Virus record (IMG/VR): IMGVR_UViG_3300032235_000428
Span: 38,461 to 102,460 of that record
Length of the DNA stretch: 64,000 bases
Reading direction: 5' to 3' (one strand)
From: a virus
Below are positions 1-48,895 of the stretch, in pieces; within the stretch, counting starts at the first letter, position 1; the number at the start of each line of letters is the position of its first letter. A program made the position numbers and the translations under genes. The notes beneath the pieces are model-generated. The model saw nothing but the letters and a program-made list of their open reading frames with translations, was not told where the DNA came from and made no database searches.

Positions 1-3000
1 AATTACCAATCTTAAAGTCACCCAATTCATTAGTTCCAGAACAATAAACTCGTCCACCAAGCTCCGAAAGTTGTTCGGTAGATGTAATAGTTTTTCCTCC
101 GTTTTCTGGTAACGCATTATAATCTATACCAGATCCAGAAAACTCCCATGTATGTGATGATGAGTTGATAATAGAAGGTCTGTGGAAGTGTAAATTATAT
201 GCTTCTGGTAAACCACCGACACCATTAATAACTGTATCTGGTATAGTTGCACCAACTTTACATTCAACTGTATAATAAGTATTAATACCAGCAACTCCAG
301 TAACGGCAATAGATACTGGACTTCCGCTATGATCATTAATTTTTAATGTAGATACATTATCTGTTACTCCAAATAATCTGGTAATACCACTAGATGATTC
401 TACGGAAACAACTAATTCTCTCTTGGTAGAATTGTAAGTATATGCATATCCAACTGCAGTTCCACCAGGAACTAATTGTGTAATTTGTCTACCAGAAACA
501 AAGTTTAATGTTGATGATGTACTTGCAAGAGAAACAACTTGATAATTATCGTGAGAATCTAAAATTTCTGAAGCAAAAAACTCTACGTTACCTTTTTGGA
601 ATGTGTTAATTCCTGTAGGTGTTGATCTAGTATCAACAACTCTTGTTAAAGCTTCGTCTTCGTATAATTGGAATGTATTTGAATCAATATATCCTAAGTA
701 ATATTGGTTTCCACTAACCATACCCTCAATAACTCTTTGAGGAGCAGAATTTTCATCTCCAATGTAAAGTACGGTATCTGCGTTTAAAAATGGGTGTGCA
801 GTTACCGTAAATCTATCAGTAGCAGTATTGAGACCTACTGTAGGTAAGAATGTTGCCTGCGTTACAACTGGTTTAAAATCTGCAGTATCATCATTTCCAG
901 CATTATCAAAAAATCTTAAAACATATAGATCTTGATCAGTTCTACCGAGACCAATCGTTCTTAATGTTTGAGAACCACTTGAAGTTCCTGTAGCAGCAAC
1001 TCTACCTCTATCAAATACGTAAGATCTTTGATTGAACCCAGATGATCTTAATGCATATAAACCAAAGTTAGTTGCTGAGTTTGTAATGGATAAGTATCCA
1101 CCAGACTGTGTTAAAGATCCATATTTGCAGAAAATTTGGAAGCACGAAACTACCTGTGCATATCCATCATTTATAGTTCTCCATCCAATACCACCAAAAG
1201 AAACCATGGTAAATGCTGCAGCAACCATGGACTTACCAAATTGTGGTTGAGGTCCTGATACAGGATTTTCTGCTTCTTCTGGTATAATTGTAGTATTTGG
1301 TGTTTGTATTTTAGAACCATCAACTAAAATACCATTTCCTGCTAAGAATGAAAGAATAGAGCAGTTTTGAATATACGGTGATCTACTAATTAAAGGCTTA
1401 TCTGTTTTAACAGCATATCCAATTCTACTTGTAAATGTATCTGCTGGATCGTCGAATGCAATTGCATAATCAAAAGTATATTGGGGAACACCTGCAAGAT
1501 CGACATAATCTTTCATTGCAAATCCAGTTACATAGCATCCATTTCTAACTCTGAAAAGATCTTTGCCAGCATTCTGTGGTCTAATAATGGTATTTCTTAA
1601 ATTATCACCAACAACAGCAACATCTTCGTATAACAGAATTGGATTGTCTTCTACATAATTTCCAGCTTCAACAAATATACAAATTGGTTTTGATTGTGTA
1701 GTTGGTAAGGATAGTGCTGGTGCTGCAGTAGTACCTATACCAATGATTGTTGTTACAATACCTACAGAGTTTACAATTGCAGATCTAACATTAGCACAAT
1801 CTGTTGTTGCTCCTATTCCAGTTGCTGGGACTGCAGAAAGATTACCGTTTGTAATTGCTGCTGTTAAAATTCCAACCAAACTATCAATATTTGATCTGAT
1901 ATTTGCACAAGAAGATGGACTAGTGTTGAATCCAGTAACAGGATCAGCAATTATGGTCCTATCTTGATAATTTAAATTGTTGGTGATTGCTAGTTTTGCA
2001 TAATCTCTCGCTGCCTGGAATGCTGTTACTGATTGGGATTGTTCACCCAATAAACCATTTGATATTGGGGCACCACCTCCATTAAAATATGCTTTTGTTG
2101 CATATACTATATGTTGATTAGAACCGTAAGAAACATCCTGAGCTATAGCATCAACAATATATCCAAGATCTCTAGCACATTTTCTGCCACCTATAATATT
2201 TGTTGATCCAATACCAATACTTCCACAAATAACATTACATGATGTTGTAATTCCAGCAAAATAACCACCATTATATGATGGTAAACCTGTTGTACTTCCA
2301 GCACCTATAACAGAGGTAACAATTCCTACAAGAGAAACAATATTAGTTTGTACATCAAAACATGAGTTGGCACTAGTATTTGGTGGTGATGTACCTATTC
2401 CACCATATATTGTTGCTCCTACAGAAACCGTTAAATCTTTAATTGGTAGACGATTTGTTATCGCCTCCCTCATTAAATCTCCAGCGTATCTAAATGCATA
2501 AATGGTTTGCTGTTCTTCTCCAGCAAGACTACCAATACCAACCCCAGTAAAATATTTTAATACAAATTCTCTTGCATAATTATTACCACCAGTAAATACG
2601 TCTGTGGAAACAGCATCAATAAAATATCCTAAATCTCTTTTGCATTTATTAGGATTTGGATTTACAAATGCTGGGTATGCTGTTGAAATTCCTGCATACG
2701 AATAATCAATGATTGTTTGTCTATTTTGTTGGATTAATCTATAAGAATCATAGTATCTAGATCTTGCGTTTGTGGAACTTTCATTAGGAAAATAAAAATC
2801 TGAATGTGCAATTGCCACAGCAGCAAGAGACTTGTCAATAATTTCTTGTCTATTATTAATAATTAAGTTTCTGGCATCCTTTGCTCTATGGAAACTATTT
2901 GCATTTACATTATTTGGATCTTGAGTTATAGTAAAGTCAAAAGTTTGAGTAATTACATTTTGATATAATGTTGGTGGAGTTTGATTATTAATTACATATT

Positions 3001-3784
3001 GGGCTAAGAATTTTATGTAATTATATGCAAACAGTGCTTCACTTTCTTCACCTTGAACATAAGATACTCCACCACTCCAATAGGCAAAACCCGCCTCTAA
3101 AGATTTACTGTTACCACCATAAGAAAGATCGTAAGTGATAGCATCTACAATATATCCAACATCCCTAATACAAATTGCCCTATCATAATCTGGTTTATCT
3201 GTATAGATGTTTGGGTAATTAAATTCTAAATATGAAACAACTTCTTCTTGAATAAATTGTCTATTGGCAGTTAATAAGTTTCCAGCATCTATGTATCTAC
3301 CACCTGGTAAAGAAAATGATCTAAATGATGCTGCTTGTGCTGCCTTTTTAAGAGTTTTAAATGGTTTTGATCTACCATCATTACTATCATCTCCATTTGC
3401 AGAAGATACATAATATCTATTTTCATACAGTCCATTAGTATTAAATCCTAAAACACCATCAGCACCATAAGTCAAAACCTGACCATCAGTTCCAGCTTTT
3501 GCAGGTAGAGTTAAAGTGTATGATGATACAAATCCTGATGTCTGACTTGGTGGTGTAATTGTTATTCTCTGTCCACCACTTTCGATGGCAATTTGAGATT
3601 GGAAAGTGACTATTCCCATACCACCAGCACCGTTGGTGGCGGAAATAATTCCTACTGTTGTAACTCCAGTTACTTTTGTATGTGTAAAAGTAGTAACACC
3701 AGCTACTATGTTCCTATTAACATCGACAAGTCTTTCGGTATCAATGTTAATACCGTGCTTTACCCTAAAATTTTTGTCAGCCAA
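1..3784 (-). CDS. Large virion structural/fibre protein (3' end truncated by window): beta-helix (pectin-lyase-like) body with inserted phycobiliprotein-like helical domains
   Basis: Hand-translated from a TTG start at 3784 (MADKNFRVKHGINID...), with GGGGA RBS and TATAAATA upstream. Motifs YYVSSANGDDSNDG..PFKTLKKAA, IFVEAGNYVE, VVGDNLRNTIIRP, SPYIQNCS. Absent from the ORF track, consistent with no stop codon before the window edge. Confidence 0.85.
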   Translation of the reverse strand, partial: MADKNFRVKHGINIDTERLVDVNRNIVAGVTTFTHTKVTGVTTVGIISATNGAGGMGIVTFQSQIAIESGGQRITITPPSQTSGFVSSYTLTLPAKAGTDGQVLTYGADGVLGFNTNGLYENRYYVSSANGDDSNDGRSKPFKTLKKAAQAASFRSFSLPGGRYIDAGNLLTANRQFIQEEVVSYLEFNYPNIYTDKPDYDRAICIRDVGYIVDAITYDLSYGGNSKSLEAGFAYWSGGVSYVQGEESEALFAYNYIKFLAQYVINNQTPPTLYQNVITQTFDFTITQDPNNVNANSFHRAKDARNLIINNRQEIIDKSLAAVAIAHSDFYFPNESSTNARSRYYDSYRLIQQNRQTIIDYSYAGISTAYPAFVNPNPNKCKRDLGYFIDAVSTDVFTGGNNYAREFVLKYFTGVGIGSLAGEEQQTIYAFRYAGDLMREAITNRLPIKDLTVSVGATIYGGIGTSPPNTSANSCFDVQTNIVSLVGIVTSVIGAGSTTGLPSYNGGYFAGITTSCNVICGSIGIGSTNIIGGRKCARDLGYIVDAIAQDVSYGSNQHIVYATKAYFNGGGAPISNGLLGEQSQSVTAFQAARDYAKLAITNNLNYQDRTIIADPVTGFNTSPSSCANIRSNIDSLVGILTAAITNGNLSAVPATGIGATTDCANVRSAIVNSVGIVTTIIGIGTTAAPALSLPTTQSKPICIFVEAGNYVEDNPILLYEDVAVVGDNLRNTIIRPQNAGKDLFRVRNGCYVTGFAMKDYVDLAGVPQYTFDYAIAFDDPADTFTSRIGYAVKTDKPLISRSPYIQNCSILSFLAGNGILVDGSKIQTPNTTIIPEEAENPVSGPQPQFGKSMVAAAFTMVSFGGIGWRTINDGYAQVVSCFQIFCKYGSLTQSGGYLSITNSATNFGLYALRSSGFNQRSYVFDRGRVAATGTSSGSQTLRTIGLGRTDQDLYVLRFFDNAGNDDTADFKPVVTQATFLPTVGLNTATDRFTVTAHPFLNADTVLYIGDENSAPQRVIEGMVSGNQYYLGYIDSNTFQLYEDEALTRVVDTRSTPTGINTFQKGNVEFFASEILDSHDNYQVVSLASTSSTLNFVSGRQITQLVPGGTAVGYAYTYNSTKRELVVSVESSSGITRLFGVTDNVSTLKINDHSGSPVSIAVTGVAGINTYYTVECKVGATIPDTVINGVGGLPEAYNLHFHRPSIINSSSHTWEFSGSGIDYNALPENGGKTITSTEQLSELGGRVYCSGTNELGDFKIGN

Positions 3785-3822: not shown

Positions 3823-3830
3823 TATTTATA
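3823..3830 (-). promoter_or_regulatory. T4-type late promoter TATAAATA
   Basis: Exact T4 late consensus overlapping the stop of the upstream gene, 38 nt before the TTG start. Confidence 0.75.
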
Positions 3831-6800
3831 TTCTATTAGCTATGAAGTTCACAACAACTGTAGTCACACCAACATTAGATACTGGAGTTACTCTTAGTGC
3901 AATATATCCAGGTGGTAATGAGTTATCTATCACTACATCATAAGATGCAACATCAACACCAGTAGAAATATTTGAATATTCTGAGTTATAGCATGTTACT
4001 CCATCATGAATGGACAATATTTTAGTTATTTGGTGAGTATTTCCAATAGAAGTTTGAACTGTATATTCAACGGATCTAAAATCAGATCTTGCCAAAGCAG
4101 TATGAACTTGTGCTGTTGCATTTGATGTTAAAGTTGTTGAAATAGTTCCAACTAATGTATTTCCTCTTATCTGAATGTCGCCATACACATGAAGTGCTGA
4201 ATTTGGTGAAGCGGTATTAATACCAACCGATCCAATTCCAGATGTTGCGTCTGCAAGTAATATTGTTCCACCAACGCCAACACGTAGACGGCCAGTTGTT
4301 GTTACTCCAGTATTATGAATGTCTTGAGATCTAATGATTGGGAACGTACCTACACCAGTTATGTTGATATTAGTGGCATTAAAGAAGTTGAAGTTAGAAA
4401 CATTTGGTGAATCTAATCTTTGTGTAAATGTTGCAATACCAGCATATAATAAGTTAGAACCGAAAATATCAAGATCATTAATTTCTAAACTAGTTCCCTT
4501 AATTGCATTAAATGTTGAAATTCCTGTAAATACACAATCAGAACCAATAATATCATTAACTGTAGCAATACCAGTGCTAACTAAATTAACATTTCTGAGT
4601 GTGTTAATAGTAGATACACCAGAATAATTTAAATTAGTACCGCTTACAAAAGTAATAATACCAACGTTTGCTCTTAATGTTGTTATTGACGCTATTCCAG
4701 AAGCATAAATGTCAGTATTTGTTATGCTTGTTAATGTTATATCAGTTGCTAATATCTTACCTAATGTACTTATACCAAGATAAGATAAGTTAGTTCCTAC
4801 TAAGTTTGGAATAGTTCCTAAACCAGAATAATTTAAATTAGTACCTGTAATAAAGGTTACAATACCAACATTAGTTCTGAAGTTATTAAAACTTCCTATA
4901 CCAGTACTATAAATGTTTACATTATCTATATCTTGATAAGTTGCTCTTGTACCAGAAATAGTAGTAACTACACCTGTTACTGCAAATAATGAATTAAGTT
5001 GTCCAATAGTATATGATACATTAGTTCCAGAAAGAGTAGTTACAAATCCAGAATTGGTGTATAAAGTATTAATAGTACCAATTCCACTGTATGCTACATT
5101 AGTACCAGTTAAATTAGTTACAACACCAACATTAGTGTATAAAGTTATAATTGTACCAATTCCACTATATGCTACATTAGTACCAGAAAGATAAGTTACA
5201 AATCCAACATTAGTGTATAATGTATTATTATTAGTAATGTTATCTAAAAATAATGTAGATGCATTTACTGTTACTAATGTAGTAACTCCAGATACTGATA
5301 GATTTTGATTGGATAGATATGTTACGAAACCAACGTTAGCATATAAAGTATTTACAGTACCAATTCCACTATATGATACATTAGTACCAGAAAGATAAGT
5401 TACAAGTCCAACATTAGATTTTAATGTAGAAATACTTGCAATACCTGCAAGATTGTCTCTTGAGAAGAATGCAGTTTCCGTTACAAACCCAACATTATTG
5501 GATGGTTGTGAAATTGTAATAGTATTTGTTCCTAAACCTACAATTCTTGTTCCAGAAGATATTCCACTTGGGGAATAAACAAAATCATTAATTTGTAGTG
5601 ATAATATAAAGGATGTGGGAAGACCAACTACGGTAGTATTAATTCCAATAGATGCTTCAGTACTTCCAGTACCAATGATATAATTTGTAGAAAGAATATA
5701 ATCTGATGTTAAAGTTGTTACTAATCCAACATTACTCTTCAATTGAGTAATGGTTCCAAGACCAGTTGTATAAATGTTGGTATTGTCTACTAATGGAATA
5801 GTTCCTATTCCAGCAAAGAAATTTGTAACATTTAGTGCAGTGACAAATCCAACGTTAGCAAAGAAATCTGATACACTAGTAATACCACTAGAATAAATCC
5901 TATCAGATTCTAAGTTTTCTGCTCCAATAGTGGTAGTTTGGAAGTTATCACCAACTGCGGATGTAATAGCAACATTTTGAACATTAAGATTTGCAATTGT
6001 TGAAGTTCCAACAATGTTCAAATCTACCGAATTTAGAGCGATAGTTCCTATTCTATTAGCAATAATTTCAAGAACATTTAAAACATTTGTTATTTCAGCA
6101 TCGGTTGCTGATAAAACACCAACAGTTGCAATCCCAACATTTATTAAATTAGATCTTATATCATTAATAGTTCCAATTCCACTATAAGATAAATTGGTTC
6201 CTGTTAAGAAAGTTACAATACCAACATTAGTCCTTAAATTAGTAAAACTTGCAATTCCAGTATTATAGAGATTTGTATTATCAATGTCTGGATATGTTGC
6301 TCTTGTACCAGAAATAGTAGTTACAAATCCAGTATTAACTCTTATTGCTGGTGTGGTTGTTACCCCAGTAACTTCTATATCTCTACCATAAAATGTAGTA
6401 ACATATCCAACATTGGTTCTTAAAACATCAATAGTACCAATACCACTATATACAATATTAGTACCAGTTAAATATGTAACTATACCAACGTTGGTATTTA
6501 AAATTGGTAATGTTGAGATTCCAGAATACCAAAGGTTTGTACCTATTAAATTAGTGACAAATCCAATATTAGTTCTTAAAGTATTGATAGTACCAACACC
6601 AGTATATTGAATATTAGTTCCACTTAAGAATGTAACAAGACCAACGCGAGCTGTTACTGTCTCAGCAGAAGAAATACCTGGAGTGTAGATATCGGTATTT
6701 ACGTATAAACGTTGTGCTGTGGTTATTCCTGTTATATTTGCATTAACAGTATCAAAATTAGTTAAAATACCAATATGTGCTTTTAATTTTGAAATACTAG

Positions 6801-9800
6801 CAACACCAGCACGAGGATCATCAACAACAGTTATAGTAGATGTTGTTGTCTGTGCTGCATTAATAGATGATGGTGTAATAGTAATGATACCTGGGGCATC
6901 TATAGAAAGAATCGTCGTATTTGGTAATAGTTCAGTTCCTGTAGAATAAACTGTCATTTCTGGGTTTAACCCAGCAGTACTGATGGCAATTTTATTCGTA
7001 CTTGGACCAATTATAGAATTATTTTGTGTTGCAATTAAAGTTTCATTATTGGTTAAAGTAAAATAATCTGCTTTTAAATTAGTAACAATTCCAACAGCAA
7101 TATAAGATTGATTAAAACTAGATATTCCAGTATAATAGATATTACTACCTAAAAGATTACCAACAGTTGCTATAAAAGTAGATGAGTTGTTAACATTGAG
7201 TATTGGTAATGTTGCAACACCAGTAATATTAATGTTACTAATACTGAGTTGAGCAGAACTTAATAATTCTTGTCCGCCAATTTTATATGATTTTGATGGA
7301 ACTAAGTTAAAGTCCTCAGTTGAGCTCCATGTATTTTGTTGTCTATCATAGAAAATACGTTTATCTGTAGTTCCTCTAAGTATAATTCCACCTTGATCTG
7401 CAGTATAATCTGTAGCACCCCCAACATCAAATGTAATATCACCAGTTGTAAGGTGTACAGCATCAACAGTAAATACTGAAGATGAAACTATTGATAAAAT
7501 TCTAACTGTACCAGCAGCTATAGAACCAGTACCACCAGTTTGTGTTATTGTCTGTCCTGGTATTAATCCAGTTGTAGTGTATATGTTTGGATCTAAAGTG
7601 ACTGCGTTTGCACCACTAACTATTGCTCCCTGTAATCCTGTAATAACAGATACAACACCAAGTTCAATATTTACATCATCTACCTGTAAAACTGAGGAAT
7701 TAAACGATGTAACAGTTCCATCAACAGTAAGATTTCCACCTACATTTAAATCTCCACGTATTGTTGAAACTCCAGTAACATTTAATGATGGGGTATTTAC
7801 AGTCCCAGAATTGTATATGTTTACTGAATTTATATCATTAGAGAAATTAGTAATACCATTTAAAGTTGATACACCAGCAACTACTAATTCATTTAAGTTG
7901 GTAGTTCCAAATGGTTGAATAATATCTGTAAAAAATGTAGATATACCAAGAACTTGTACATTATCAACATCTATTGCTGGTACAACTAAATTATGTCTAA
8001 TTGTAGTAACGCCTACAGAATTTCCAATAACTATATTCGTCGCATCACCAAATGCATTTACTGATGTAAGTGCTGTGTTGAATAGTGTTAATGTTCCAGT
8101 GCTTGTTCCAGAAATAGTTGGGTTAGCACCATTAATTGCAAAAGAAGTTGCATTAGGTAGTGAGAATGTAGTATTTCTTACAGTTGCTATTCCTGTAGTA
8201 GCACCCCAAACAATTGCTGTTGCTGCACCAAATGCATTTATTGATGTTAATGCTGTATTGAATAGTGTTAATGTTCCAGTACTTGTTCCAGAGATAGTTG
8301 GGTTAGCACCATTAATTGCAAAAGAAGTTGCATTGGGTAACGAAAATGTAAGATTTCTTACTGTTGCTATTCCTGTAGTGGCACCGATTAATAAATCAGT
8401 AGCAACACCAAATACATTTATTCTTGTTGCAACTGTATTATATAAGTTTTGAGATACTTGAGTACCAACAACTGTTGGATTACCAATTGTTAATGTGCCG
8501 CTGTTAGCACCAATATTAAATGTAGATGCAGCACCAAAGGCGTTTATAGTTGTATTAGTATTAAATACAGTAAAACTGGATTGAGTTGCACTAATAGAAG
8601 TTGCATTTGATAGATTTACTGAAGCATTTCTTATCGTAGTAACTCCAGTATTTGCTCCAATCAGTAAGTCTGCAGCAGCACCAAATGCATTTACTCTTGT
8701 TGCAACACTATTGAAAACATCTTGTGTTACTTGAGTACCAACAACTGTTGGATTACCAATTGTTAATGTGCCGCTGTTAGCACCAATATTAATAGATGAT
8801 GCCTGACCAAAAGCATTTACAGTATTTGCAATTGTATTGTAAACGTTCTGTGTTGCACTTTGACCAATTAAAGTTGATGGTCTTAATGTTAACGTAGCGT
8901 TAGTTGAACCAATACCGATCGCTGTTGCTTGCCCAAAAGCATTAACAGTAGTTGTTCCAGTATTATAAAGATTTTGTGTTGTATTACCACCAACAATTGT
9001 TATCGGTCTTAATGTTAATGTTGCATTAGTTGAACCAATACCAATAGTTGTTGCTTCTCCGAAAGCATTAACAGTAGTTAGATTTGTATTGAATAGAGTT
9101 AATGTTCCAGTTGAAGAACCAGATATAGTTGGATTATTTCCATTTATATCAACTGTGGATGCATTAGGTAAAGAAAATACAGTGTTTCTTACTGTAGCAA
9201 ATCCACTTATTGCACCTAATAGAAGATTATTTGCTGCCCCAAATGCATTTACCGATGTTGCAATTGTATTGTAAACATTCTGTGTTGCATTAGTACCAAC
9301 TATTGTTGATGGTCTAGCCGTTAGGGTTGCATTGGTTGAACCAATACCAATAGATGTTGCTTGTCCAAATGCGGTAACTGTAGTTGCTACAGTATCATAA
9401 AGATTTTGGGTTACTTGAGTGCCAACAACTGTTGGATTACCTACAGTTAAAGTGCCCGAGTTTGCACCAATATTTAATGTTGTTGCTGCACCAAAAGCAT
9501 TAACTGTAGTTGCTACTGTATTATAAACATTTTGTGTTGCATTAGTACCAACTATTGTTGATGGTCTAGCCGTTAGGGTTGCATTGGTTGAACCAATACC
9601 AATAGATGTTGCTTGCCCAAAAGCATTAACTGTAGTTGTTACTATATTATACAGATTTTGGGTTGCTTGAGTACCAACTACTGTAGGATTACCGATTGTT
9701 AAAGTACCACTATTAGCACCAATATTCAATGTTGATGCTGCACCAAAAGCATTAACGGTGGTTGTTCCTGTATTATATAAATTTTGTGTTGAATTTCCTC

Positions 9801-12708
9801 CAACAATAGTTGTTGGTCTGAGAGTTAAAGTTGCATTAGTTGAACCAATACCAATAGTGGTTGCGTCACCGAATGCAGTAACTGTTGTTGTAGTAGTATC
9901 AATAAATCTATATGTAGATTGATCGGTAATGAATAATGAAGATCTATGACTAATTGTATTTTGGAATGTGGAAACACCAGCAACTCTTAGATTATTTTCT
10001 AGTTCTACATCACCACTAAGAGTTGAAATTCCAGTAACTCTAAATGTTGCTGTAGTGGTAACTCCAGTTATTTGAAGATTTCCAGTAACTTTTGTCCCAC
10101 TAGAATCAACTTTAACTCTTTCAGTGTTATCATAATTAGTAATTCTAACATCTCTTCCAGAAAGACTTAGATATCCAGAAGTATTAAGATGTTGTAAAAT
10201 ACCATTACTTGTATTATCTGCAAATCCTATTCTAAGACCAGTTCCTGAACTATTACCAAGATTTATATATTGGTCGCTTGTTCCAGAAAGTGCTGGTAAA
10301 TTAATATTTGATACGCTTAAAGAAGGAACGTAACCATTGTTAGGTCCTGTTATAATACCAACAAATGTTGATACTCCAGCAACATTTAAATTATTATCAA
10401 GACGAACATCTCCACTCAGTGTTGAGATTCCAGTAACTCTAAATGTTGATGTTGTGGTAATTCCAGTAACATTTAAGTTACTGTTTATCATGAATGAATT
10501 ACTAAATGTGGTGACACCAGCAACTCTTAGATTATTTCCTAGCTCTACATCACCACTAAGAGTTGAAATTCCTGTAACTTTTAATGTAGTTAGTGTTGTA
10601 ATTCCAGATACAAAGACATCTTTTCCAAATTGAGCACTATCAGTTAAGGTTGAAAACCCAGTAACTCTTAGATTTCCAATTGTACCAATTCCAGATACGC
10701 GAATATTATTGGTAAACTCAGTGTCTCCAGTTAATGTTGAAATACCAGTAACTCTAAATGTTGATGTTGTGGTAATTCCACCAACATTTAAGTTGTTAGT
10801 TAAATTAGTATCTCCAGTTAAAGTCGATACACCAGTAACTCTAAAGTTACCTACAGTCGCTATTCCAGATGCTAACAAGTTAGCATTGAACATTGAATCT
10901 GAAACAAATGTAGATACTCCAGCAACTCTAATTGAAGAATCTAATCTAACTGGTGATACAAATGTAGAAACACCAGAGACTTTAAAATCTTTCCCTACAT
11001 TTAAATTGCTACTAATTCCAACTCCACCTTGAACGACTAGGGTTCCATTTGAGGATGTGAATGAATCTTGACCACCAGTTAAGTTGAATCTATAATTTCT
11101 TACCGTGGTTACCCCACTAGTAGAACCAATGACTATATTTGTTGCATCTCCAGCAAAATTTACTCTATTTGCTACAGTATTAATTAAATTATAATCTGTT
11201 TGATCTGTTATAAAATCAGAATTATAATGTCTTATTGGATCATAAAATGTAGATACACCAATAACTTCAAGATGACTTGCCGTTAGGGTTCCAGTTAGTG
11301 TAATGTCACTTGTACTTGCAATAGAAACTAGTCCAGTTTCTTGATCAATTCTAAAAATTGATCCAATTCTAAAATTGCCAGCTTGGTCTACAGATTGAAA
11401 ATATACCCTACCACCATTCAATTGAATTGCTTCATTTTCAGGTAAAGATAGAGTTGGATCTTGTGTAAATGTTTTCCCAGATCCAACGCAACCAAAATTA
11501 AATCCAAAAAGTCTTAATTGTACACCTTTACCATCACCACGTACACCTACTGTACCAAAGTTTGTTGCAGATCCAATGGATCTCATATCGGCACCAAACT
11601 TTTGGTAATCTGCCCAAAGAATAGTGCTTGCAGTACCTACTTGAGTAGTTCCATTAGACTGGAAAATTCTAACATCTTGAGTTGAACCAATTCCAACAGA
11701 ATTGAAGATGCCAGAACCTTTACCTAGGATAGTTATATAATCACCTTCAACAGATACTACAGTTCCGATAGCAACTGGAGTTCCACTTTGATAATACTTT
11801 ACAACATAATTAGATGTAATTGATGTTGTAATTCCAGAAAGCTTTAATTGAGCATTTGCAGTACTTGCTATACCAACACTTCCAGAAATACCTTCAATAC
11901 CAACACTGGAGAAATAAGTAAAACAGTTTACCCATTCAGTTCTTGCCCCGTTGGTCATCTTCAGGGCAGTTTGATTTGGTGTAATAAAAGTACACTCATT
12001 AAAGAGCATTGCAGGCTCTAGTGTTGTTGATTGAACGACACTAGCATCTATTAAAACACCTCTACCAGCAACTTTTGCCGTTGGATAATTATCTACAGTA
12101 TCAAATCCATAGGGATCAGTTGGAGTTTGTGTTGACCCCCTATTAAGTACGGTAATTCTCTGAACATAAGGGCTCCTAGTGGTTGTAACCATATTAGGAG
12201 CAAATTTAAATCCATATCCAGTATCAGTTGAAGAATTATAATAAAAATTTCCTAATGCCAAATCTTCAATTGTGCTTTCTCCGTTTAAGAGAAATGCGTC
12301 ATTTCTTTCTGTACCAGAAGTTGGTTGAATAAATGTGGATCTTAAACCATTTCCGCGTACAGTAACCCCTTGTGGTATAGTTAACGGGAAAATTTCAGTA
12401 AAAGTTCCAGAAGAAATTAGAATAGTATCCCCAGAAACTGCTACAGTTAATGCTTTTTTTAACGTAGCAAATGCTGCAGATATATTTTGACCATCATTAG
12501 TGTCAAGACCAGTTTTGGTAACGTAGTATGTTTGACCTGGGTATCCTCCACCTAGATTTACAACAGTTTCTACACCACCTACATCTTTTTTTAGGTACGC
12601 CTTACCATCATGTGTATTTACAGCTAATTCTCCCAACTGTAGGTCTGAAGTGAGAGGAATTTTGCCTGGTGTTGAAGACCTTTTTAGTCTAATGATTGGA
12701 TCTGCCAT
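3826..12708 (-). CDS. Giant tail-fibre-like virion protein (2960 aa)
   Basis: N-terminal IRLKRS..GELAVNTHDGKAY fibre attachment motif, beta-helix region (YYVTKTGLDTNDG..SPYVQRIT), long Gly/Thr/Asn-rich repeat shaft, C-terminal GSVGINTASPNSALHVYG and FRSVEYTVQ domains. Confidence 0.8.
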   Translation of the reverse strand: MADPIIRLKRSSTPGKIPLTSDLQLGELAVNTHDGKAYLKKDVGGVETVVNLGGGYPGQTYYVTKTGLDTNDGQNISAAFATLKKALTVAVSGDTILISSGTFTEIFPLTIPQGVTVRGNGLRSTFIQPTSGTERNDAFLLNGESTIEDLALGNFYYNSSTDTGYGFKFAPNMVTTTRSPYVQRITVLNRGSTQTPTDPYGFDTVDNYPTAKVAGRGVLIDASVVQSTTLEPAMLFNECTFITPNQTALKMTNGARTEWVNCFTYFSSVGIEGISGSVGIASTANAQLKLSGITTSITSNYVVKYYQSGTPVAIGTVVSVEGDYITILGKGSGIFNSVGIGSTQDVRIFQSNGTTQVGTASTILWADYQKFGADMRSIGSATNFGTVGVRGDGKGVQLRLFGFNFGCVGSGKTFTQDPTLSLPENEAIQLNGGRVYFQSVDQAGNFRIGSIFRIDQETGLVSIASTSDITLTGTLTASHLEVIGVSTFYDPIRHYNSDFITDQTDYNLINTVANRVNFAGDATNIVIGSTSGVTTVRNYRFNLTGGQDSFTSSNGTLVVQGGVGISSNLNVGKDFKVSGVSTFVSPVRLDSSIRVAGVSTFVSDSMFNANLLASGIATVGNFRVTGVSTLTGDTNLTNNLNVGGITTTSTFRVTGISTLTGDTEFTNNIRVSGIGTIGNLRVTGFSTLTDSAQFGKDVFVSGITTLTTLKVTGISTLSGDVELGNNLRVAGVTTFSNSFMINSNLNVTGITTTSTFRVTGISTLSGDVRLDNNLNVAGVSTFVGIITGPNNGYVPSLSVSNINLPALSGTSDQYINLGNSSGTGLRIGFADNTSNGILQHLNTSGYLSLSGRDVRITNYDNTERVKVDSSGTKVTGNLQITGVTTTATFRVTGISTLSGDVELENNLRVAGVSTFQNTISHRSSLFITDQSTYRFIDTTTTTVTAFGDATTIGIGSTNATLTLRPTTIVGGNSTQNLYNTGTTTVNAFGAASTLNIGANSGTLTIGNPTVVGTQATQNLYNIVTTTVNAFGQATSIGIGSTNATLTARPSTIVGTNATQNVYNTVATTVNAFGAATTLNIGANSGTLTVGNPTVVGTQVTQNLYDTVATTVTAFGQATSIGIGSTNATLTARPSTIVGTNATQNVYNTIATSVNAFGAANNLLLGAISGFATVRNTVFSLPNASTVDINGNNPTISGSSTGTLTLFNTNLTTVNAFGEATTIGIGSTNATLTLRPITIVGGNTTQNLYNTGTTTVNAFGQATAIGIGSTNATLTLRPSTLIGQSATQNVYNTIANTVNAFGQASSINIGANSGTLTIGNPTVVGTQVTQDVFNSVATRVNAFGAAADLLIGANTGVTTIRNASVNLSNATSISATQSSFTVFNTNTTINAFGAASTFNIGANSGTLTIGNPTVVGTQVSQNLYNTVATRINVFGVATDLLIGATTGIATVRNLTFSLPNATSFAINGANPTISGTSTGTLTLFNTALTSINAFGAATAIVWGATTGIATVRNTTFSLPNATSFAINGANPTISGTSTGTLTLFNTALTSVNAFGDATNIVIGNSVGVTTIRHNLVVPAIDVDNVQVLGISTFFTDIIQPFGTTNLNELVVAGVSTLNGITNFSNDINSVNIYNSGTVNTPSLNVTGVSTIRGDLNVGGNLTVDGTVTSFNSSVLQVDDVNIELGVVSVITGLQGAIVSGANAVTLDPNIYTTTGLIPGQTITQTGGTGSIAAGTVRILSIVSSSVFTVDAVHLTTGDITFDVGGATDYTADQGGIILRGTTDKRIFYDRQQNTWSSTEDFNLVPSKSYKIGGQELLSSAQLSISNINITGVATLPILNVNNSSTFIATVGNLLGSNIYYTGISSFNQSYIAVGIVTNLKADYFTLTNNETLIATQNNSIIGPSTNKIAISTAGLNPEMTVYSTGTELLPNTTILSIDAPGIITITPSSINAAQTTTSTITVVDDPRAGVASISKLKAHIGILTNFDTVNANITGITTAQRLYVNTDIYTPGISSAETVTARVGLVTFLSGTNIQYTGVGTINTLRTNIGFVTNLIGTNLWYSGISTLPILNTNVGIVTYLTGTNIVYSGIGTIDVLRTNVGYVTTFYGRDIEVTGVTTTPAIRVNTGFVTTISGTRATYPDIDNTNLYNTGIASFTNLRTNVGIVTFLTGTNLSYSGIGTINDIRSNLINVGIATVGVLSATDAEITNVLNVLEIIANRIGTIALNSVDLNIVGTSTIANLNVQNVAITSAVGDNFQTTTIGAENLESDRIYSSGITSVSDFFANVGFVTALNVTNFFAGIGTIPLVDNTNIYTTGLGTITQLKSNVGLVTTLTSDYILSTNYIIGTGSTEASIGINTTVVGLPTSFILSLQINDFVYSPSGISSGTRIVGLGTNTITISQPSNNVGFVTETAFFSRDNLAGIASISTLKSNVGLVTYLSGTNVSYSGIGTVNTLYANVGFVTYLSNQNLSVSGVTTLVTVNASTLFLDNITNNNTLYTNVGFVTYLSGTNVAYSGIGTIITLYTNVGVVTNLTGTNVAYSGIGTINTLYTNSGFVTTLSGTNVSYTIGQLNSLFAVTGVVTTISGTRATYQDIDNVNIYSTGIGSFNNFRTNVGIVTFITGTNLNYSGLGTIPNLVGTNLSYLGISTLGKILATDITLTSITNTDIYASGIASITTLRANVGIITFVSGTNLNYSGVSTINTLRNVNLVSTGIATVNDIIGSDCVFTGISTFNAIKGTSLEINDLDIFGSNLLYAGIATFTQRLDSPNVSNFNFFNATNINITGVGTFPIIRSQDIHNTGVTTTGRLRVGVGGTILLADATSGIGSVGINTASPNSALHVYGDIQIRGNTLVGTISTTLTSNATAQVHTALARSDFRSVEYTVQTSIGNTHQITKILSIHDGVTCYNSEYSNISTGVDVASYDVVIDNSLPPGYIALRVTPVSNVGVTTVVVNFIANRI
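8040..9900 (-). repeat. Internal tandem repeats (~42 aa QNLYNTVATTVNAFG... units and 60-aa units) in the 2960-aa fibre gene
   Basis: Near-identical nucleotide copies, e.g. 9284-9363 vs 9536-9615 (252-nt period) and a 180-nt period around 8076-8400. Confidence 0.85.
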
Positions 12709-30400: not shown

Positions 30401-33400
30401 TTACAAGTAATTATCAAATGCCAGTGGATTTTTTCTACGTACAATTGGATTTGTAGATATACCAGAGAAACGATTTGTTTTAACTGTAAATTGTTTTGGT
30501 GTAGATCTATTGCTGAAAAGAATTTTACCCCAACTGTATGCCCCATAATAAGCAGTAGAAGCTATTCCAACAACAGTATTCAATCCATTATATCTAGAAA
30601 CACTGGTAACAACTCTAATTACTGTCGAAATTCCAACAGAAGGTATTGACCTATTAATTTGAGATGTGCTGTAAACTTCATACACATTATCTAAGTTTTC
30701 TGTACTTATTCCTAGAATAGATCCACTTCTTGTTAATGTTGTTATTCCGAATCCAACTGAAGAACTTGTGACAACAAAATAATCACCAGTTCTTATACCA
30801 CTCTTAGTAATTCCATGCCCATCGGTCATCAAAGGAGATCCTTGTGGGATATAAAAATCAAATATAATACCAGTTGTAACACCAACATTAGTAGTTCCAA
30901 TACCAACAATTAATCCATAATCACCCTCATAAGAAACATCTGAAATTTCCTCTATCTGCATTATGGGTGGAGATATTAAAACATTTGGACCTTTAATACC
31001 AGTAACTGAAAATACCAATGGGGATGCTAATGTAGTTCTTCTATAAGTTGTTGCAAGACCAACACTGTCATAAGAATCTATGAATAATAAGTCTCCAATT
31101 TTATAATTTGTACCACCTTCAGTTATTGTTGTTGAGAAAACTGTGTTATTTAAAATATTAATCTCAATAGTGGCTGTTGCACCTCTACCAAATCCTGTTA
31201 AAGTTTTTAATCTAGCATTTGTAAATATGTTAGATGATGATGATAATGGTGGATATCCAATTCCTTGTTGGTTAACTACTAGTCCTGTAAGTGGTCCTGT
31301 AGTGTATCCAAATCCAGGATTAGTTATAGTAAATGAAGTTATAACTCCACTTGTTACATTTGCAGTTGCTGAAGCAATACCAGTTATTCCTATTCCTGGG
31401 CGTTGGATTGATACTGTTGGATTTGATGTATAACCAGAACCAGGATTTACTATATTCAACGATGTAATTGTACTTGATATAGAAACTGTTGCTGTAACAA
31501 TACCAGATGACAGAGAATCATTTGATATAATTTCTACAATTTTTGCTTTACTAACTTGAATACCTTCTTTTGGATTATCAAATAGTGATTTAACAGTTGT
31601 TACATAAACAACTGTTGATCCAATACCAACATTGCTAAGAATTATAGATTGACTATGAATATTTGGTTCATAGTACTTTCTATCTTTACCAACTTCTATT
31701 TCATCAATAATTTTATCTGATGTTTGTTTTATCCAATTGATAGGTCTTTCTAATAATTCAGTATCACTAACTCCTTGACCAGCATAAGTATTAGTTACAA
31801 CAGTATCTGCCGAATTTATGTCTACAACTATTCTCTTATCTTGATTTAATGTTATATCCAAGTCACTAAAGAATTGGACATCATCCCCAATTTTTAAAGT
31901 CTCTATGACATCAACTTCATTAACGTCAATTGATTCAGTTCCTGTATAAATTAATAATTTGCAAGTGTCTCCAGGAGTTGTATATCCAGCAAGTCTTGGT
32001 TTAGGTGGTTCATTAAACCTAACCGTGCTTCCTCCATTAAATGTATAAGATTCTCCTGGAACTTGTAAAATATCATTAATAAAAACAAGTAGGTTATATT
32101 GTAAATCAATTCCAGAGGATCTTCTTGGGAAGAATGATATTCTTTCACCATTTCTAGATAATGGGAATATTCTTCTTCTACCATTAAAATATTGTTCAAT
32201 ATTATCCAATACCAATATGTCACCGACGCTCCATCCAGAGAATTTGGAATTAAATGTTTTATCAATAGTTAATTGGAATTCTTCAAATGCATATAAAGTA
32301 AATGTGGATGAATCTGTAGGTATCCCAGTGGTCCCACCCATTGGTACAGTTAATATATCACCTTGTCCATATCCGTATCCAAGATTTTTAAGTTCAAAAT
32401 TAATAACACTTGATCCTTGACCAACTGTTATATCTACTGTTGCGCCAGTACCAATACCTGATGGTGACTTTGATGAATATATTAGGGGTATATCCGAATA
32501 ATTTAATGGTGGATCTATAACAACTTTAGGTGGATTGGATCTAGTATACCCTATTCCTGCATTTGTAATGACAACATTAGTTATTTTTCCATTAGCAGCA
32601 TTTGCATATCCTACATATGTGATCTTAGGAGTTCCAGAACTATAGGTTTGTACACCAACTCTAATATATGTCTGCACACCAACTCTATATCCAGATCCAG
32701 AGTTTCCAACAGATACTGATTGAATTGTTCCAGCGGCGGATACTATTGCAGTTCCACCCGCACCAATTAAAGGTTGATATCTCAATCCATTGGTAGATCC
32801 AACAGAAACTATTATTCCACCTCTTGGAACTGTAGATGTGTTTATATCATTAGTTACTTGGAAATTTGCTGGATTACCTGTAAATGATATATTTGTTTGT
32901 CCAGAAATTTCGGATAATTTGTAGTCACCGTTTATATTTGTTAATGGTGAACCCAATCTTTGTGGTCCTTGGAATACATCATCTATTAAAATTATAGCAT
33001 TTGATGTACTAAATCCAGTAACATTTGATTTATTTTGTTTTAATGTATAACTTGTAGTTATACCGTTAAAAGATTGTGATATGTCATCAAAAATATAATT
33101 TGTATTATAAGCTTTATCGTAAGTACTTGTAAATCCTTGTTTTAATGCTGATCTAATGAAAACTCTACCATCAAACCTAGTAGAAGTACTTATACCAAGG
33201 TAATCAACATCATTTGGGCCATTAGATGTTGTACCTATAGGTGTCAATCCTCTAATTGGTTCCGAAAAATGTATTTTATTTCCAACTATATTATAAGATC
33301 CAGATATTTTTGTCACTAAAGAACTACTTGAATGTGAACTTTCTGTTGTTCCCACCCAACTTCTGAAAACTGTAATTGAATTTGTGCTTGCCACCCCAAC

Positions 33401-36400
33401 AGATGTGACAAACATAATTTCATTGTTAATTTTAATCAGATCTCCACTAAAAATAGAAGATATTCCACTTAGCGGGAATATAGTACTCCCAATCCCAACT
33501 GTAGAAACAATTGTTGAAGTTACTGCAGTAGAAACAACTGGGGATTGTATAATACCATTTATACTAACCAACGCTCTGGTAGTTACATTTTTCGATCTCA
33601 ATGTATGAGTACTTCCAATTCCAACAGAAGTTAAAGATAATGGTATAGGATTAAACAGTAAAGCATTTTGTGCAGATGATGCTAATTGTATTCTTCTAGA
33701 ATCTATTCTAATAACATAAACTGATGATGGTAATTTTGATGTAGTTCCAACACCAACAAAAAATGTTGTCCCTATACCAATAGCATTTGATGTAATACTA
33801 TTAAATGGAATATATTCAATTTCTTCACCACTAACAAAAAAGTGATTTGGTAGATATATTGTATTATCAGTTAGACCAACTACAGAACCAACAGAAGCAT
33901 TAAAATCAATGCTAAAAATTGGTTCTCCTTTATGATTAAGTTCAAAAGATCTAGTAGAACTATCAAATTGTGAGCTAATATCATCTATTTTTAAAACCCT
34001 ATTCCCAATAAATTCTAGATAACTCTGTAAAAATGGAGTGTTAAACAATATTTCATTAGAAACATATCTATCATCGACTATTATTGGCTTTTCTCTGGAA
34101 ATATCAAAATCTTTATATAAATTAATATCAACATTACTATCAAGAGTTGCTAATGAAGTTAAAGTTGTTAGTTGCTGTGCTGCAGTAACTAATCCCACTC
34201 TATCCTCAGCATCAAAAGCGTAAGATTCTATAGAAAGATCACTAAACTTTTTAAATCCTAAAGTATGATTTAAGTCACTAACTAATGAATTCCAATTTTC
34301 AATAGAAATATTAGATTTAATAGAATATGAAAAATATTGGTAATAATCATTATCATGTAATCTTTGTAAATTATCACCCAAAACTCCTATATTATTTTTC
34401 CAACCCTTCGATAAGATAGCACTACCATCTATATTGTGTTTTGTTTCGAAAAGTATAATTTGTGATATTAATCCCCTATTCTTTGTAGATTCTCCAGTTA
34501 CTAAATCACCAACTTTAAAGTTTTCTGTAGTATTAATTTTTAAATATTCATTTTTAAAATCATATGACTGGGCAATACCTTCAACTCCACTTTCAGAGAT
34601 TATTTTTTCACCAGAAATAAATCTATCTTTAACTAAAGTTATTTCAAAAATTGGAAAATATTTTTTAGGAGTAACAGTTCCTATAGATTCAAATGTATCA
34701 AATGTTCCAGGATTTGGATTTGGTAAGTCACCAATATTGTATGTTATAGTTGGATTTTCTCCCCCAACATCTGGATTAATATTTGTTAATGTGAATAATT
34801 TGTACCCATAATTTGCAGAATTATAGCCATTTCCACCTTCAACAATGTCAATATTGGTATTTTCTACAATAACTTCATCACCAACTTCAAAAGGAAAATC
34901 ATTTATACTACTATAGCTTATTGCAAGACCAACAGTAACATCGTATGTTCCTGAATTATATGAAATAGAACTAATTCTAGTTCCATTTGGATTATTTGTT
35001 GGTAAAATTACAGGACTAATGTTATAAACACCAGTAGTGTTTCTTACAATGTTTACTTCATAATCTCCAATTTCATATCTTAAATCAACCTCATCATTTA
35101 CTCTTCCAGTTAAACCATCCAATACCACTAACTGAGGAGATACAAAATAATTAACACCTGGAGATAGTATTTTAATTCTTTCAAATTTTGATAATGGTTC
35201 AATTTTAAATATTTTTGGTAAAAGTGTGGAAGGACTTAAAGTTTTATCAGTTGGATAATCAAATCCAATATCGTTTAGTTTATATTTGTAAACTTTTCCT
35301 ATGTTATCGCTAAATGGTAATAATAAAGCATCAGTTCCTAAACCACTTCTAACTTTTGCTATATTTGGTAATTTTTTATACCCAAAACCACCAGATTGGA
35401 TTGTTATTTTACTAATTTCACCTAAAGCTGAAAGTGATTTTGTAAAATATTTAATCTCAGATTCATTTAAATTGTAACTATTTCTTTCTGGAGGATTTGT
35501 TAAAATATATGTGAAAGATGTTGAACCAATTCCAGATACTGGATATAGTCCATTATACAAACTTTCTAAGATATTTAATAAATTATTATTTGTTATATTG
35601 TAATTATCATCTATAAGTTCTTCTTTTGCTAGTCCAAGACCGTCAAAAAGTATTGGTGTTAACTTATAGAATAATTTTTCGGGAGTATTTTCATCTATAA
35701 TCAACGACACTGAAGCATTATTATCTACACCAATAGATCCAAACTTCCTTACCGAGAAAGATTTTGTATTATCGGTGTAGAATTTATTTTTAAATTCAGA
35801 ATCTAGATAAAAATCGAAAGAGAACGCTGGTCTTCCACCAGAAGATAGTGAAAGATCTGATAAATTAAAAATAACTGTAGAATTTTTATATACGTTTAAC
35901 TCTGGATTTATTAATGATAATGCTCCTGTTGCCGCAGGAGAAACTAAATCAATATAATCTACATTAAGTATATTGTTGAGAGATTTGTAATAATTATTTG
36001 ATAGTCTTATTCTATTTTCATCTAAAACAATGACGTAATAAATTTCATCATTTAAAAGTCCACCCGTAGGTGATTGTGATGTATGTAAAACTTTTTGACC
36101 AGTTTTATAACCATGATTTTGAATGGTAATTATATCATTAGTTGTATCTACATCTAATATACCAAAACTAGATGGATTTATAACCATTCTTCTAATAGTA
36201 TCATTATACTTAACTATAAAAGTTGTTTGTATTCCAGATCTAACATCAATATCCACAACATCATTAACTGTTAAATTATGATTTGTAAGTGTTGTGACTG
36301 TAGAGGTTAATTTTAATATATCACCAACTATAGTATTACTATTATTAGTTGTAAATTTATGATTAAAACCACTACCATGATCAATAAATGATAATAAAAC

Positions 36401-41528: not shown

Positions 41529-43436
41529 TTAATTTCTTATTAGATTTCCATTTAAGTAACTTGATGATACTATATATTGAGATCCCGATACGTCTCTCCC
41601 AGACGATATTGAATCTTCAATTAAATCAATATTAGACTTTGAATTGTCTAATTGCAAATACAAATCTTGTTTTCCAATAATATCATTTGACTTTGGGATC
41701 ACCGAAAATTCTATGATATTAATACCATCAACTTTTTTTGAATTTATTATGTTAATAGTTGATATTTTTATCTCACCTTTAACATAATCTATGACACCAA
41801 CATCAGATCTAACTAAAACTGGTTCTGAAGAAGACCCCAATTTAAATAAAAATAATCTTCCAGTCAAAAGATCTGGATTTGGTACATCTGAAAAGTACAC
41901 TGTATCACTAACACCAGGTATATTTAATCCAGAAGATTTTATGTTATAACCTTTTTGACTTTTAACATAAAATTCATTACCGAAACATACTTCATATTCT
42001 GCAAATTTTGAAATTTCAACCCGTAAATCTCTTCGCATAGAGATTTTAGTGATGTTTGATGTTATAGAATCATCTGAATCATCTATTAATTTTAGAAATT
42101 TACTATATTTAAATCTTGAAGAGTATCTATTTAATTCAGTAGATTTTGCATATTTTGTAAGATTATCTAAAACTCTATTTTTAACAACACTCACAGACCT
42201 AGTTAAATTTGTATTAAAGTAGACTTGAGAATCGTATTCAATATAAACATATTTTAAGTCAACAAATTCTGGAACTATTCCCGCAACTGCGTATTTTCTA
42301 AGTTTAAATTTTAAGTTATCTTTAACATTATTAGGAATGTATGCACCATTTTTAGGCTTTACAGCAATAAAAACTTTTCCAAATTTTGGAGGATCCAATT
42401 CTTCACCACCAAATACTGATATTGATTCTACTTCTGGGTATATTGATGGTATTAATGCTTCATAATCGGCAGAAGTTACTGCTCTATTTTGTGATGCATA
42501 TACTCTTGGAGCAAACTTTTTTATTGATGCTACTTCTTCTATTGGTTTACCACCAGTTGATGCCTGAATAGTTGTTATAAATGGTGTTGGTATTTGTAAT
42601 TCGTCACCATTATTATCTACAAATGATCCAGAAAAAGTAAATTCGGATATTCCATTAGAACTTGGACCCGATGTAACGATATACGATGCTTCTATATAAT
42701 TTTTATCGTCCAAAGGTGTTCCAAAAGTACCATCACCGAATATTAATTCATACCTCTGATCTGCTATTTCACTTAAGAAGAAAATTTTATCAGTGGACTT
42801 TACTTCACTTATATTATTAACAAAATTAAATATTCTGGAAATAGAACTTTGAATGGAATCTCTTACTACAACTCTTAATGTTGAAGTGTCTATATTGATA
42901 TTATCTAGGACAAAATTTTGGTTTTTGTTTAATGAATCTACTATAAAATTACTTGATAATAATGTTCCTTCAAGAACTTCTATATCATCGAAGGATGCTA
43001 TTCCATTTATAACTGGAACAGTAATATCATCAGCAATAGAAAATACGTAGCTTTGTGCCCCGAAAGAACGTGTTGTTGTACAAACTGGGCCTTTCTTTAA
43101 TGTAACTGTAATTGCATTATCTGCAATTCCAATAACATCTACGAAAAAAGATATTTTTGCTTTAGAGCATGTGGTAGATCTTGGTAAATATCCAACATGC
43201 TTCGCTAATGAAACTACATTTTCCCTTAGAGTAGCAGAATCTAAAAATACTTCATTACTCAACATATTAGCATTATATGAAGAGATATAAGTATTATATG
43301 CTAGTATGTCTATTAAAATAGATAAATTGGAACCTTCAAAATCATAATCCGTGAAGGTTGAATTTGATCTTAAATAATCTTTTATTGAAGTCTTTATCTG
43401 CTCAAAATCTAAGTTTGAGAAATTTACTAATGCCAT
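41529..43436 (-). CDS. gp6: Baseplate wedge subunit
   Basis: LDFEQIKTSIKDYL, DYDFEGSNLSILIDILAYNTY, FLDSATLRENVVSLAK, QNRAVTSADY. Confidence 0.95.
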   Translation of the reverse strand: MALVNFSNLDFEQIKTSIKDYLRSNSTFTDYDFEGSNLSILIDILAYNTYISSYNANMLSNEVFLDSATLRENVVSLAKHVGYLPRSTTCSKAKISFFVDVIGIADNAITVTLKKGPVCTTTRSFGAQSYVFSIADDITVPVINGIASFDDIEVLEGTLLSSNFIVDSLNKNQNFVLDNINIDTSTLRVVVRDSIQSSISRIFNFVNNISEVKSTDKIFFLSEIADQRYELIFGDGTFGTPLDDKNYIEASYIVTSGPSSNGISEFTFSGSFVDNNGDELQIPTPFITTIQASTGGKPIEEVASIKKFAPRVYASQNRAVTSADYEALIPSIYPEVESISVFGGEELDPPKFGKVFIAVKPKNGAYIPNNVKDNLKFKLRKYAVAGIVPEFVDLKYVYIEYDSQVYFNTNLTRSVSVVKNRVLDNLTKYAKSTELNRYSSRFKYSKFLKLIDDSDDSITSNITKISMRRDLRVEISKFAEYEVCFGNEFYVKSQKGYNIKSSGLNIPGVSDTVYFSDVPNPDLLTGRLFLFKLGSSSEPVLVRSDVGVIDYVKGEIKISTINIINSKKVDGINIIEFSVIPKSNDIIGKQDLYLQLDNSKSNIDLIEDSISSGRDVSGSQYIVSSSYLNGNLIRN

Positions 43437-48888: not shown

Positions 48889-48895
48889 AAACGTA

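Follow-up and report, generated by a model that had tools for sequence, protein, structure and literature searches.

We found that a giant tail-fibre gene of a T4-like cyanophage encodes a series of domains that are almost certainly homologous to phycobiliproteins, a group regarded as antenna proteins of cyanobacteria and algae. The gene lies at the left end of a 64,000-nucleotide stretch of DNA (the window), namely positions 38,461 to 102,460 of the IMG/VR virus record IMGVR_UViG_3300032235_000428. The virus contig is 102,460 bp long, with a completeness estimate of 52%, and the window makes up its right-hand 64 kb. The homologous region spans residues 161-685 of the fibre protein and occupies an insertion of about 550 residues between the cap and the first rung of an N-proximal beta-helix. 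The single most likely function of these domains would be the binding of a bilin or another tetrapyrrole, to which we assign a probability of roughly 0.45. A structural role without any chromophore ranks close behind.

The inserted domains and their fold

The fibre gene and the parts of its product that are discussed below are as follows (window coordinates, minus strand, unless stated otherwise). An iterated domain hidden Markov model (HMM) split the insert into five pieces.

2-3784 (-): N-terminal 1261 residues of the 3113-residue tail-fibre protein, with a TTG start at 3784
Contig positions 32903-38461 (G000:C1), left of the window: remaining part of the fibre gene
3329-3430 (-): right-handed beta-helix cap, residues 119-152 (...NGDDSNDG..KPFKTLKKAAQAA), aligning with residues 51-90 of the neighbouring paralogue
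2888-3304 (-): phycobiliprotein-like unit D1, helices A, B, E, F and G, residues 161-299, with Cys205-x-Arg-Asp; domain HMM positions 3-134, E 5e-28
2768-2896 (-): extra A-B helical hairpin, residues 297-339; domain HMM positions 3-41, E 3e-9; two helices in the AlphaFold2 model
2294-2767 (-): phycobiliprotein-like unit D2, complete (helices A, B, E, F, G and H), residues 340-497, with Lys-Cys381-x-Arg-Asp and Cys475; PF00502 at 23.1 bits
1841-2239 (-): phycobiliprotein-like core D3, helices E to H, residues 516-648, with Lys-Cys536-x-Arg-Asp and Cys626; domain HMM positions 33-158, E 1e-44
1730-1834 (-): extra H-type helix with Cys663, residues 651-685; domain HMM positions 132-157, E 4e-5
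2-1687 (-): beta-helix resumed from residue 700 (...ICIFVEAGNYVEDNPI...) and later fibre domains, aligning with residues 95-270 of the paralogue
3826-12708 (-): neighbouring 2960-residue paralogue with an uninterrupted beta-helix cap and no phycobiliprotein-like domain

The Pfam family PF00502 matched the whole protein at 30.2 bits, against a gathering cut-off of 22.2, and many homologues have a precomputed PF00502 annotation. Among the single units, D2 lay above the cut-off and D1 below it (16.5 bits, profile positions 21-139). D3 alone had no PF00502 match, so its membership follows from its likeness to D2. Single-sequence searches of the whole protein against the PDB with phmmer returned weak matches (E 0.2-2), and a profile was therefore needed; phmmer did place D1 on residues 34-105 of C-phycocyanin alpha, with its cysteine over Cys84. 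We then searched the PDB with a profile (A2) built from a 29-sequence domain alignment drawn from the window and IMG/VR loci. This yielded 97 distinct sequences at E<=1, with a best E-value of 1.2e-4, and all 60 that were listed are phycobiliproteins. The alignment spans helix A through the K-C-x-R-D-I-G-Y...GG segment, again with the cysteine over Cys84. The Pfam score above cut-off, together with a profile whose listed PDB matches are exclusively phycobiliproteins, indicates a resemblance beyond chance. Overall identity to phycobiliproteins is only 12-17%.

Structure prediction gave a concordant picture. The AlphaFold2 model of the array was all-helical with a pLDDT of 71, with D2 above 90 and low confidence for D1 and the last helix, and D2 modelled alone reached a pLDDT of 86 and a pTM of 0.84. 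In Foldseek searches with both models, all of the approximately 50 listed matches were phycobiliproteins, mostly beta subunits, with TM-scores of 0.70-0.72 for D2. The Foldseek E-values were all >1e-3, and we placed weight instead on the exclusivity of the matches, their coverage, the TM-scores and independent Z-scores from the aligner VIA. With VIA, D2 matched phycoerythrin beta at the top rank (Z 16.3, root-mean-square deviation 2.1 A over 137 residues), followed by far-red allophycocyanin (15.1), the bilin domain of ApcE (14.8, 4xxi) and another allophycocyanin-type chain (14.5). Stressosome, sensor and other non-bilin globins scored below the phycobiliproteins (Z <=12.3).

These models confirm a predicted globin-type fold with helices A, B, E, F, G and H and with phycobiliproteins as nearest structural neighbours. 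The X-Y helical hairpin, which makes the alpha-beta monomer in phycobiliproteins, is absent. The structural alignments begin at phycobiliprotein residues 30-34 and the sequence alignments at 38-39, and the domain starts with helix A. The extra hairpins in the insert are copies of A-B and not of X-Y. The original prediction for this gene, which had proposed a phycobiliprotein-like fold from the letters of the window alone, stood up to Foldseek and VIA searches with the AlphaFold models.

The arrangement of the pieces is less regular than had been proposed. The three core motifs begin at residues 203, 379 and 534, which places Cys205, Cys381 and Cys536 at codons 3170-3172, 2642-2644 and 2177-2179. 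Three closing helices start with Cys475, Cys626 and Cys663 (2360-2362, 1907-1909 and 1796-1798). All the motifs and all six cysteines quoted in the original prediction are thus found in the translation of 2-3784 (-), at the codons it had given. It had counted three domains, and three cores and three Cys-headed closing helices are indeed present, but there is not one complete set per unit: D1 has no closing (H) helix of its own, with Phe in place of Cys, and D3 lacks its own A-B hairpin. The units are internal repeats by BLASTP (D1/D2 E 2e-17, D2/D3 E 3e-21).

In total, the pieces comprise three A-B hairpins, three E-G cores and three H helices, a count that fits nesting. The order of the pieces is consistent with D2 lying in the B-E loop of a middle unit, with that unit itself placed in the G-H loop of D1. 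Nesting of this kind would let the helix at residues 651-685 complete D1. In known phycobiliproteins, the B-E loop is the site of the large insertion in ApcE, and the G-H loop is where beta subunits exceed alpha subunits in length.

The insertion itself can be read from uninterrupted relatives. In the neighbouring paralogue, just four residues separate the cap from the first beta-rung. A beta-helix homologue in phage P-SSM2 (39% identity) has no insertion at the cap either. The segment at 1690-3330 is therefore an insertion in the beta-helix cap. In S-SM2 and S-SSM7, no close homologue of the beta-helix part was found, so the insert-free counterpart is shown for P-SSM2 and for the paralogue in the window.

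The protein that carries the insertion is a trimeric-type tail fibre. Two PHROG tail-fibre families match it (phrog_5342, E 2e-166; phrog_4527, E 3e-95), and a C-terminal Peptidase_S74 intramolecular chaperone (PF13884, E 4e-16) was found at residues 3019-3071 of the full protein, outside the window. Together with a late promoter box upstream of the gene (see below), these matches support the earlier proposal that this is a virion protein, and the location of the phycobiliprotein-like domains in the virion is well supported. The start at 3784 given in the original prediction holds, but the gene is not contained in the window: the open reading frame runs on past the left end to 3113 residues (G000:C1:32903-42244 on the whole contig).

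The part of the fibre left of the window has long Gly/Thr-rich repeats of the type NNINQTAGTAxLNRLTV(A/T)GVSTF and repeated GxGLDADLLDG motifs, with the S74 chaperone at the C-terminus. The paralogue shares the cap and first rungs and continues with long runs of VTGISTL-type repeats. The P-SSM2 beta-helix protein (L088, NC_006883 15006-18623) and the homologue consensus of the window protein have a '...TP(L/F)ILAL(R/GG)' tail in common.

Conserved cysteines, family size and adsorption phenotypes

To describe conservation, we used 894 domain pieces from 121 homologous proteins. The first cysteine (Cys1, of C-x-R-D) was Cys in 520 of 554 pieces (94%), the arginine was present in 512 of 528 (97%) and the aspartate in 522 of 528 (99%). 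The second cysteine (Cys2), directly before helix H, was found in every piece that has helix H (523/523, 100%). The expectation that Cys-x-Arg-Asp and the second cysteine would be kept in homologues was therefore borne out, at 94-100%, and all three units of the window protein have Cys-x-Arg-Asp. The segment common to the phage domains and phycobiliproteins is the bilin-contact segment K-C-x-R-D-x-G-Y.

Cys1 and Cys2 are usually both present, and the apparent exceptions in the window protein vanish if its units are nested. Single-cysteine variants were observed in both directions: locus L025 has Tyr...Cys (Cys2 only), and loci L028, L039 and L043 have Cys...Ser/Ala (Cys1 only). The end points of the VIA alignment bear on the nature of Cys2. 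Model residue 155 was aligned last, to chain residue 184 of 184, and Cys136 lies 19 residues before this end. This offset of 19 is like that of Cys153 in the 172-residue C-phycocyanin beta chain (the beta-153/158/165 sites). The VIA end points are thus compatible with a beta-155-type site, but the HMMER alignment to R-phycoerythrin beta is offset by about 11 residues at Cys2, and the equivalence of Cys2 with that site is a possibility.

We found that the domains are widespread among cyanophages. A tblastn search of the array against 50,697 phage records matched 351, all of which are Synechococcus or Prochlorococcus phages or named cyanophages (one named 'Marine'). Matches at several places per genome were common, in genes annotated as tail fibre, short tail fibre, gp7 or structural protein. 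On the 102-kb contig itself, the A2 profile matched nothing besides the fibre gene. An exhaustive profile search found 1517 representatives (at 50% identity) at E<=1e-3. Short stand-alone forms were essentially absent: the search for them found 24 short proteins, mostly fragments from short contigs, and no cellular donor lineage. Three metagenomic giants, P0150 (6382 residues), P0151 (5984 residues) and P0152 (4799 residues), have 30-37 matched stretches per chain, far above the window protein.

The distribution of the domains can be compared with published adsorption phenotypes. Liu et al. 2019 (PMC6628666) report no adsorption of P-HM2 and P-HM1 in the dark; P-SSP7, a podovirus, adsorbs in darkness, and P-SSM2 does so too, to a lesser extent than in light. 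The same paper also describes adsorption of S-PM2, citing Jia et al. 2010, as light-dependent and independent of host photosynthesis. For other S- phages, a literature search turned up no adsorption phenotypes. Light-sensitive tail fibres are named there as one open possibility. S-PM2 had 12 matches to the A2 profile, and P-HM2 and P-HM1 had 5 apiece. In P-SSM2 and P-SSP7 there was no match with the A2 profile and none with PF00502 at E<=10. Presence of the domain thus tracks the need for light in four of four phenotypes, in separate lineages (n=4). The correlation points in the direction that a photoreceptor would predict, in a sample too small to be decisive.

Possible bilin binding and its alternatives

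Our preferred explanation is that the phycobiliprotein lineage was the source of the domains and that selection has retained them as ligand-binding modules. Each reconstructed unit would retain Lys83-Cys84-x-Arg86-Asp87 and a Cys directly before helix H. In phycobiliproteins, the former residues hold the bilin, and it is ahead of helix H that beta subunits carry their second bilin. On these grounds, the most likely ligand would be a host-made bilin. It would be attached during infection, ahead of particle assembly; host lyases of the S/U or T type could do this, as could CpeT in phages that have it, or the domain could attach the bilin itself, as ApcE does. One may speculate further that modules of this kind, bearing a chromophore and placed towards the baseplate end of the fibre (and, in relatives, in gp7 as well), make deployment of the fibre or baseplate respond to light, giving the light-dependent adsorption of S-PM2 and P-HM2. 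These later steps are progressively less secure. It is unlikely on present evidence that host bilins are covalently bound to the modules of the mature virion and that these gate deployment of the fibre or baseplate as a photoreceptor, and light-gated adsorption through these domains is likewise doubtful.

Several observations weigh against bilin binding or against its link to light. The first set concerns the domains themselves. In phycobiliproteins, the connection between helices B and E contributes to the bilin pocket; it is some 10 residues shorter in the phage domains, whose pocket may therefore be open or missing. Roughly 20 positions, including many polar ones, reach a conservation of 95% or more; because these are as conserved as C-x-R-D, conservation alone does not point to the bilin residues. 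Among the best 150 of the 1517 representatives, nearly all are giants, and a single chain can hold as many as 37 matched stretches, which makes the domain look like a structural building block. The adsorption correlation consists of four phages, and adsorption of the domain-free P-SSM2 is still enhanced by light. In addition, coloured cyanophage particles have not, to our knowledge, been reported.

The second set concerns bilin genes. Heme oxygenase, bilin reductase, CpeT and CpeS are all missing from the window contig, from its relative DSL-LC03 and from a complete 243-kb relative, and no CpeS-type lyase was found in the 5 records searched. We searched 20 complete isolate genomes with the A2 profile and four gene families; 16 of the 20 have the domain. 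Bilin reductase was present in 5 of these 16 and in 2 of the 4 without the domain, and heme oxygenase in 2 of 16 and 2 of 4, so that neither is associated with it. P-SSM2 and S-SSM7 have both genes and no domain, and P-SSM2 has the fullest bilin gene set yet lacks the domain. The suggestion that viral ho1, pcyA or pebS would feed the fibre therefore finds no support in these genomes.

For cpeT, an association was found: all 13 cpeT-positive genomes have the domain (Fisher p 0.007). We constructed a gp6 tree, in which S-SM2, S-SSM7 and P-SSM2, which have neither cpeT nor the domain, form one clade with the window phage and DSL-LC03 (support 96/99). P-SSM7 and S-ShM2, which also have no passing cpeT match, fall elsewhere. 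The grouping of the myoviruses without cpeT and domain in one clade means that the cpeT association is largely one historical event. We therefore rejected the cpeT link as independent evidence, as one gp6 branch explains it. The co-occurrence expected by the original prediction thus appears for cpeT, where it reduces to this one clade, and not for ho1 or bilin reductases. Phage CpeT reportedly binds phycoerythrobilin tightly and does not transfer it to the host beta subunit.

We also observed cpeT within about 3 kb upstream, on the same strand, of a phycobiliprotein-like giant tail gene in one IMG/VR genome (L027/L044) and in four isolates:

S-PM2, NC_006820 163961-170382
S-RSM4, NC_013085 169882-177038
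Syn1, NC_015288 19950-26288
S-CAM1, KU686192 18265-30947 (L049)

In S-CAM1, the two genes are separated only by tRNA genes and a 2OG-Fe(II) oxygenase. The four isolates belong to one gp6 clade, and their adjacency counts as a single conserved arrangement, a further point on the negative side.

Much of this evidence would suit a chromophore-free structural exaptation, the alternative that ranks close behind. Under this alternative, a single capture of the phycobiliprotein fold gave rise to a rigid helical unit that now spaces or decorates beta-helix and fibre modules, like Ig-like domains, and the role of the conserved Cys, Arg and Asp would lie in folding, in contacts between domains or in disulfides formed after lysis. 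The long arrays in giant virion proteins, the roughly 20 equally conserved positions, the shortened B-E pocket loop and the lack of a tie to ho1 or bilin reductase genes all favour it. So does the facultative nature of the insertion, which is absent from the paralogue and the P-SSM2 homologue and is gained or lost between close relatives. In the gp6 tree, the window phage (gp6 at 41529-43436) is sister to S-SM2 (NC_015279; 58% identity, 100/100); the former has the domain and the latter does not. As S-SM2 also lacks a close beta-helix homologue, the fibre module appears to be exchanged between close relatives within the clade.

The cysteines speak in both directions. Once nesting is allowed for, Cys1 and Cys2 occur nearly always together, which favours a structural role. 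However, single-cysteine variants exist in both directions, virion proteins fold in the reducing cytoplasm, and if Cys2 is of the beta-155 type the two cysteines would lie far apart in the phycobiliprotein fold. A further point against a purely structural role is that the best-kept likeness to phycobiliproteins is the bilin-contact segment K-C-x-R-D-x-G-Y, which in those proteins is polar and faces the pocket, and is not part of the core.

A module that re-uses the old bilin cleft for another ligand, such as a glycan or protein on the host surface, or a different small molecule, is a good deal less probable. Its appeal is that the domains occur in proteins of the adsorption apparatus (fibres, gp7), with many conserved polar residues and a pocket altered by the shorter B-E loop. 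Yet they are N-proximal in a 3113-residue fibre, whose architecture would suggest receptor binding at the C-terminal tip, as is usual; host-range proteins normally diversify, which makes a conserved site unexpected in them; and nothing points to any specific alternative ligand. Chance or convergence, that is, an unrelated helical repeat that happens to contain C-x-R-D, is very improbable: the identity is low and helical folds readily give middling structural scores, but the Pfam gathering score is passed, the listed PDB profile matches are exclusively phycobiliproteins, these rank above all other globins in two independent structure aligners with the whole domain covered, and the order and spacing of helices and motifs match.

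Genomic setting, known systems and significance

The fibre gene belongs to a T4-like cyanophage, a relative of the Kyanoviridae. The closest isolate is Synechococcus phage DSL-LC03 (Kyanoviridae), whose orthologue is 77% identical over the phycobiliprotein-like region. This orthologue is a 3161-residue coding sequence annotated as 'hypothetical protein' and has the same start position as the window gene. The genes around the fibre gene are gp6-, gp8-, gp13/14- and gp15-like. The late promoter that had been claimed upstream of the start was read directly:

3823-3830 (-): T4-type late promoter box TATAAATA, overlapping the stop codon of the upstream gene

Some 40 nt separate the box from the TTG start downstream of it, and this interval holds a GGGG run resembling a Shine-Dalgarno sequence. 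Elsewhere in the window, a 7-kb island at 48700-56000 has a GC content of 42-47% in a phage of about 30% GC and contains small open reading frames only. It includes a DUF7178 protein (50918-51532, E 3e-39) and a tRNA-Leu(TAA) (54060-54143), besides which an Rfam search of the island matched nothing. The island looks like a horizontally acquired or hypervariable block.

We compared the phage domains with known proteins of related fold. Phycobiliprotein beta subunits (CpeB, CpcB and cryptophyte beta chains; PF00502) have the same A-B-E-F-G-H fold and the Lys-Cys84-x-Arg86-Asp87-x-Gly-Tyr segment and, like the phage domains, a long G-H loop that closes with a Cys just ahead of helix H; in beta subunits this is the beta-155 bilin site, of which the phage Cys is a possible equivalent. 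The phage domains differ in having no X-Y hairpin, a B-E loop about 10 residues shorter and low identity. They are also embedded, probably nested, in a fibre, whereas the beta subunit is a free 170-residue component of the phycobilisome.

The core-membrane linker ApcE likewise holds a module of phycobiliprotein fold within a large multidomain protein; besides its bilin domain, full-length ApcE chains scored VIA Z 13.0 and 12.8. ApcE tolerates a large B-E loop insertion and attaches its bilin without a lyase, through a Cys at a different position. Unlike the phage fibre, it belongs to the phycobilisome core, and its other modules are linker REP domains and not beta-helix or fibre parts. The chassis of the fibre is in turn that of known phage fibres and spikes with a pectate-lyase-like beta-helix and S74 chaperone (GxxxxPFKTLxxA cap, beta-helix, fibre repeats, S74); these have no globin-fold insertion in the cap, unlike the window fibre.

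Phycobiliprotein-like globins that bind bilins for sensing outside phycobilisomes are represented by BBAGs (Rockwell et al. 2023, PMC10151467) and the globin domain of photocobilin (8j2w, VIA Z 12.8). Unlike the phage domains, these are cellular and are small or fused to B12 domains, and none is a virion protein. Phages are mentioned in that paper only for their bilin reductases (PMC10151467). Our literature search found no published account of phycobiliprotein-like domains in cyanophage fibres or baseplates. New here are the anatomy of the insertion and its nesting relative to uninterrupted homologues, the size of the family and the correlation with adsorption phenotypes. The negative co-occurrence with ho1 and bilin reductases and the phylogenetic deflation of the cpeT link are also new.

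The domains are a possible substrate for the phage T-type lyase CpeT. If the photoreceptor interpretation is true, they would be the first light sensor built into a virus particle and would provide a molecular basis for the light-dependent adsorption of cyanomyoviruses, unexplained since 1979. Whether the particle carries pigment and senses light becomes testable, which bears on the old question why adsorption of several cyanomyoviruses requires light yet does not depend on host photosynthesis. Even if the domains are colourless, a host antenna protein captured and nested in a beta-helix would be an unusual case of host-to-virus exaptation.

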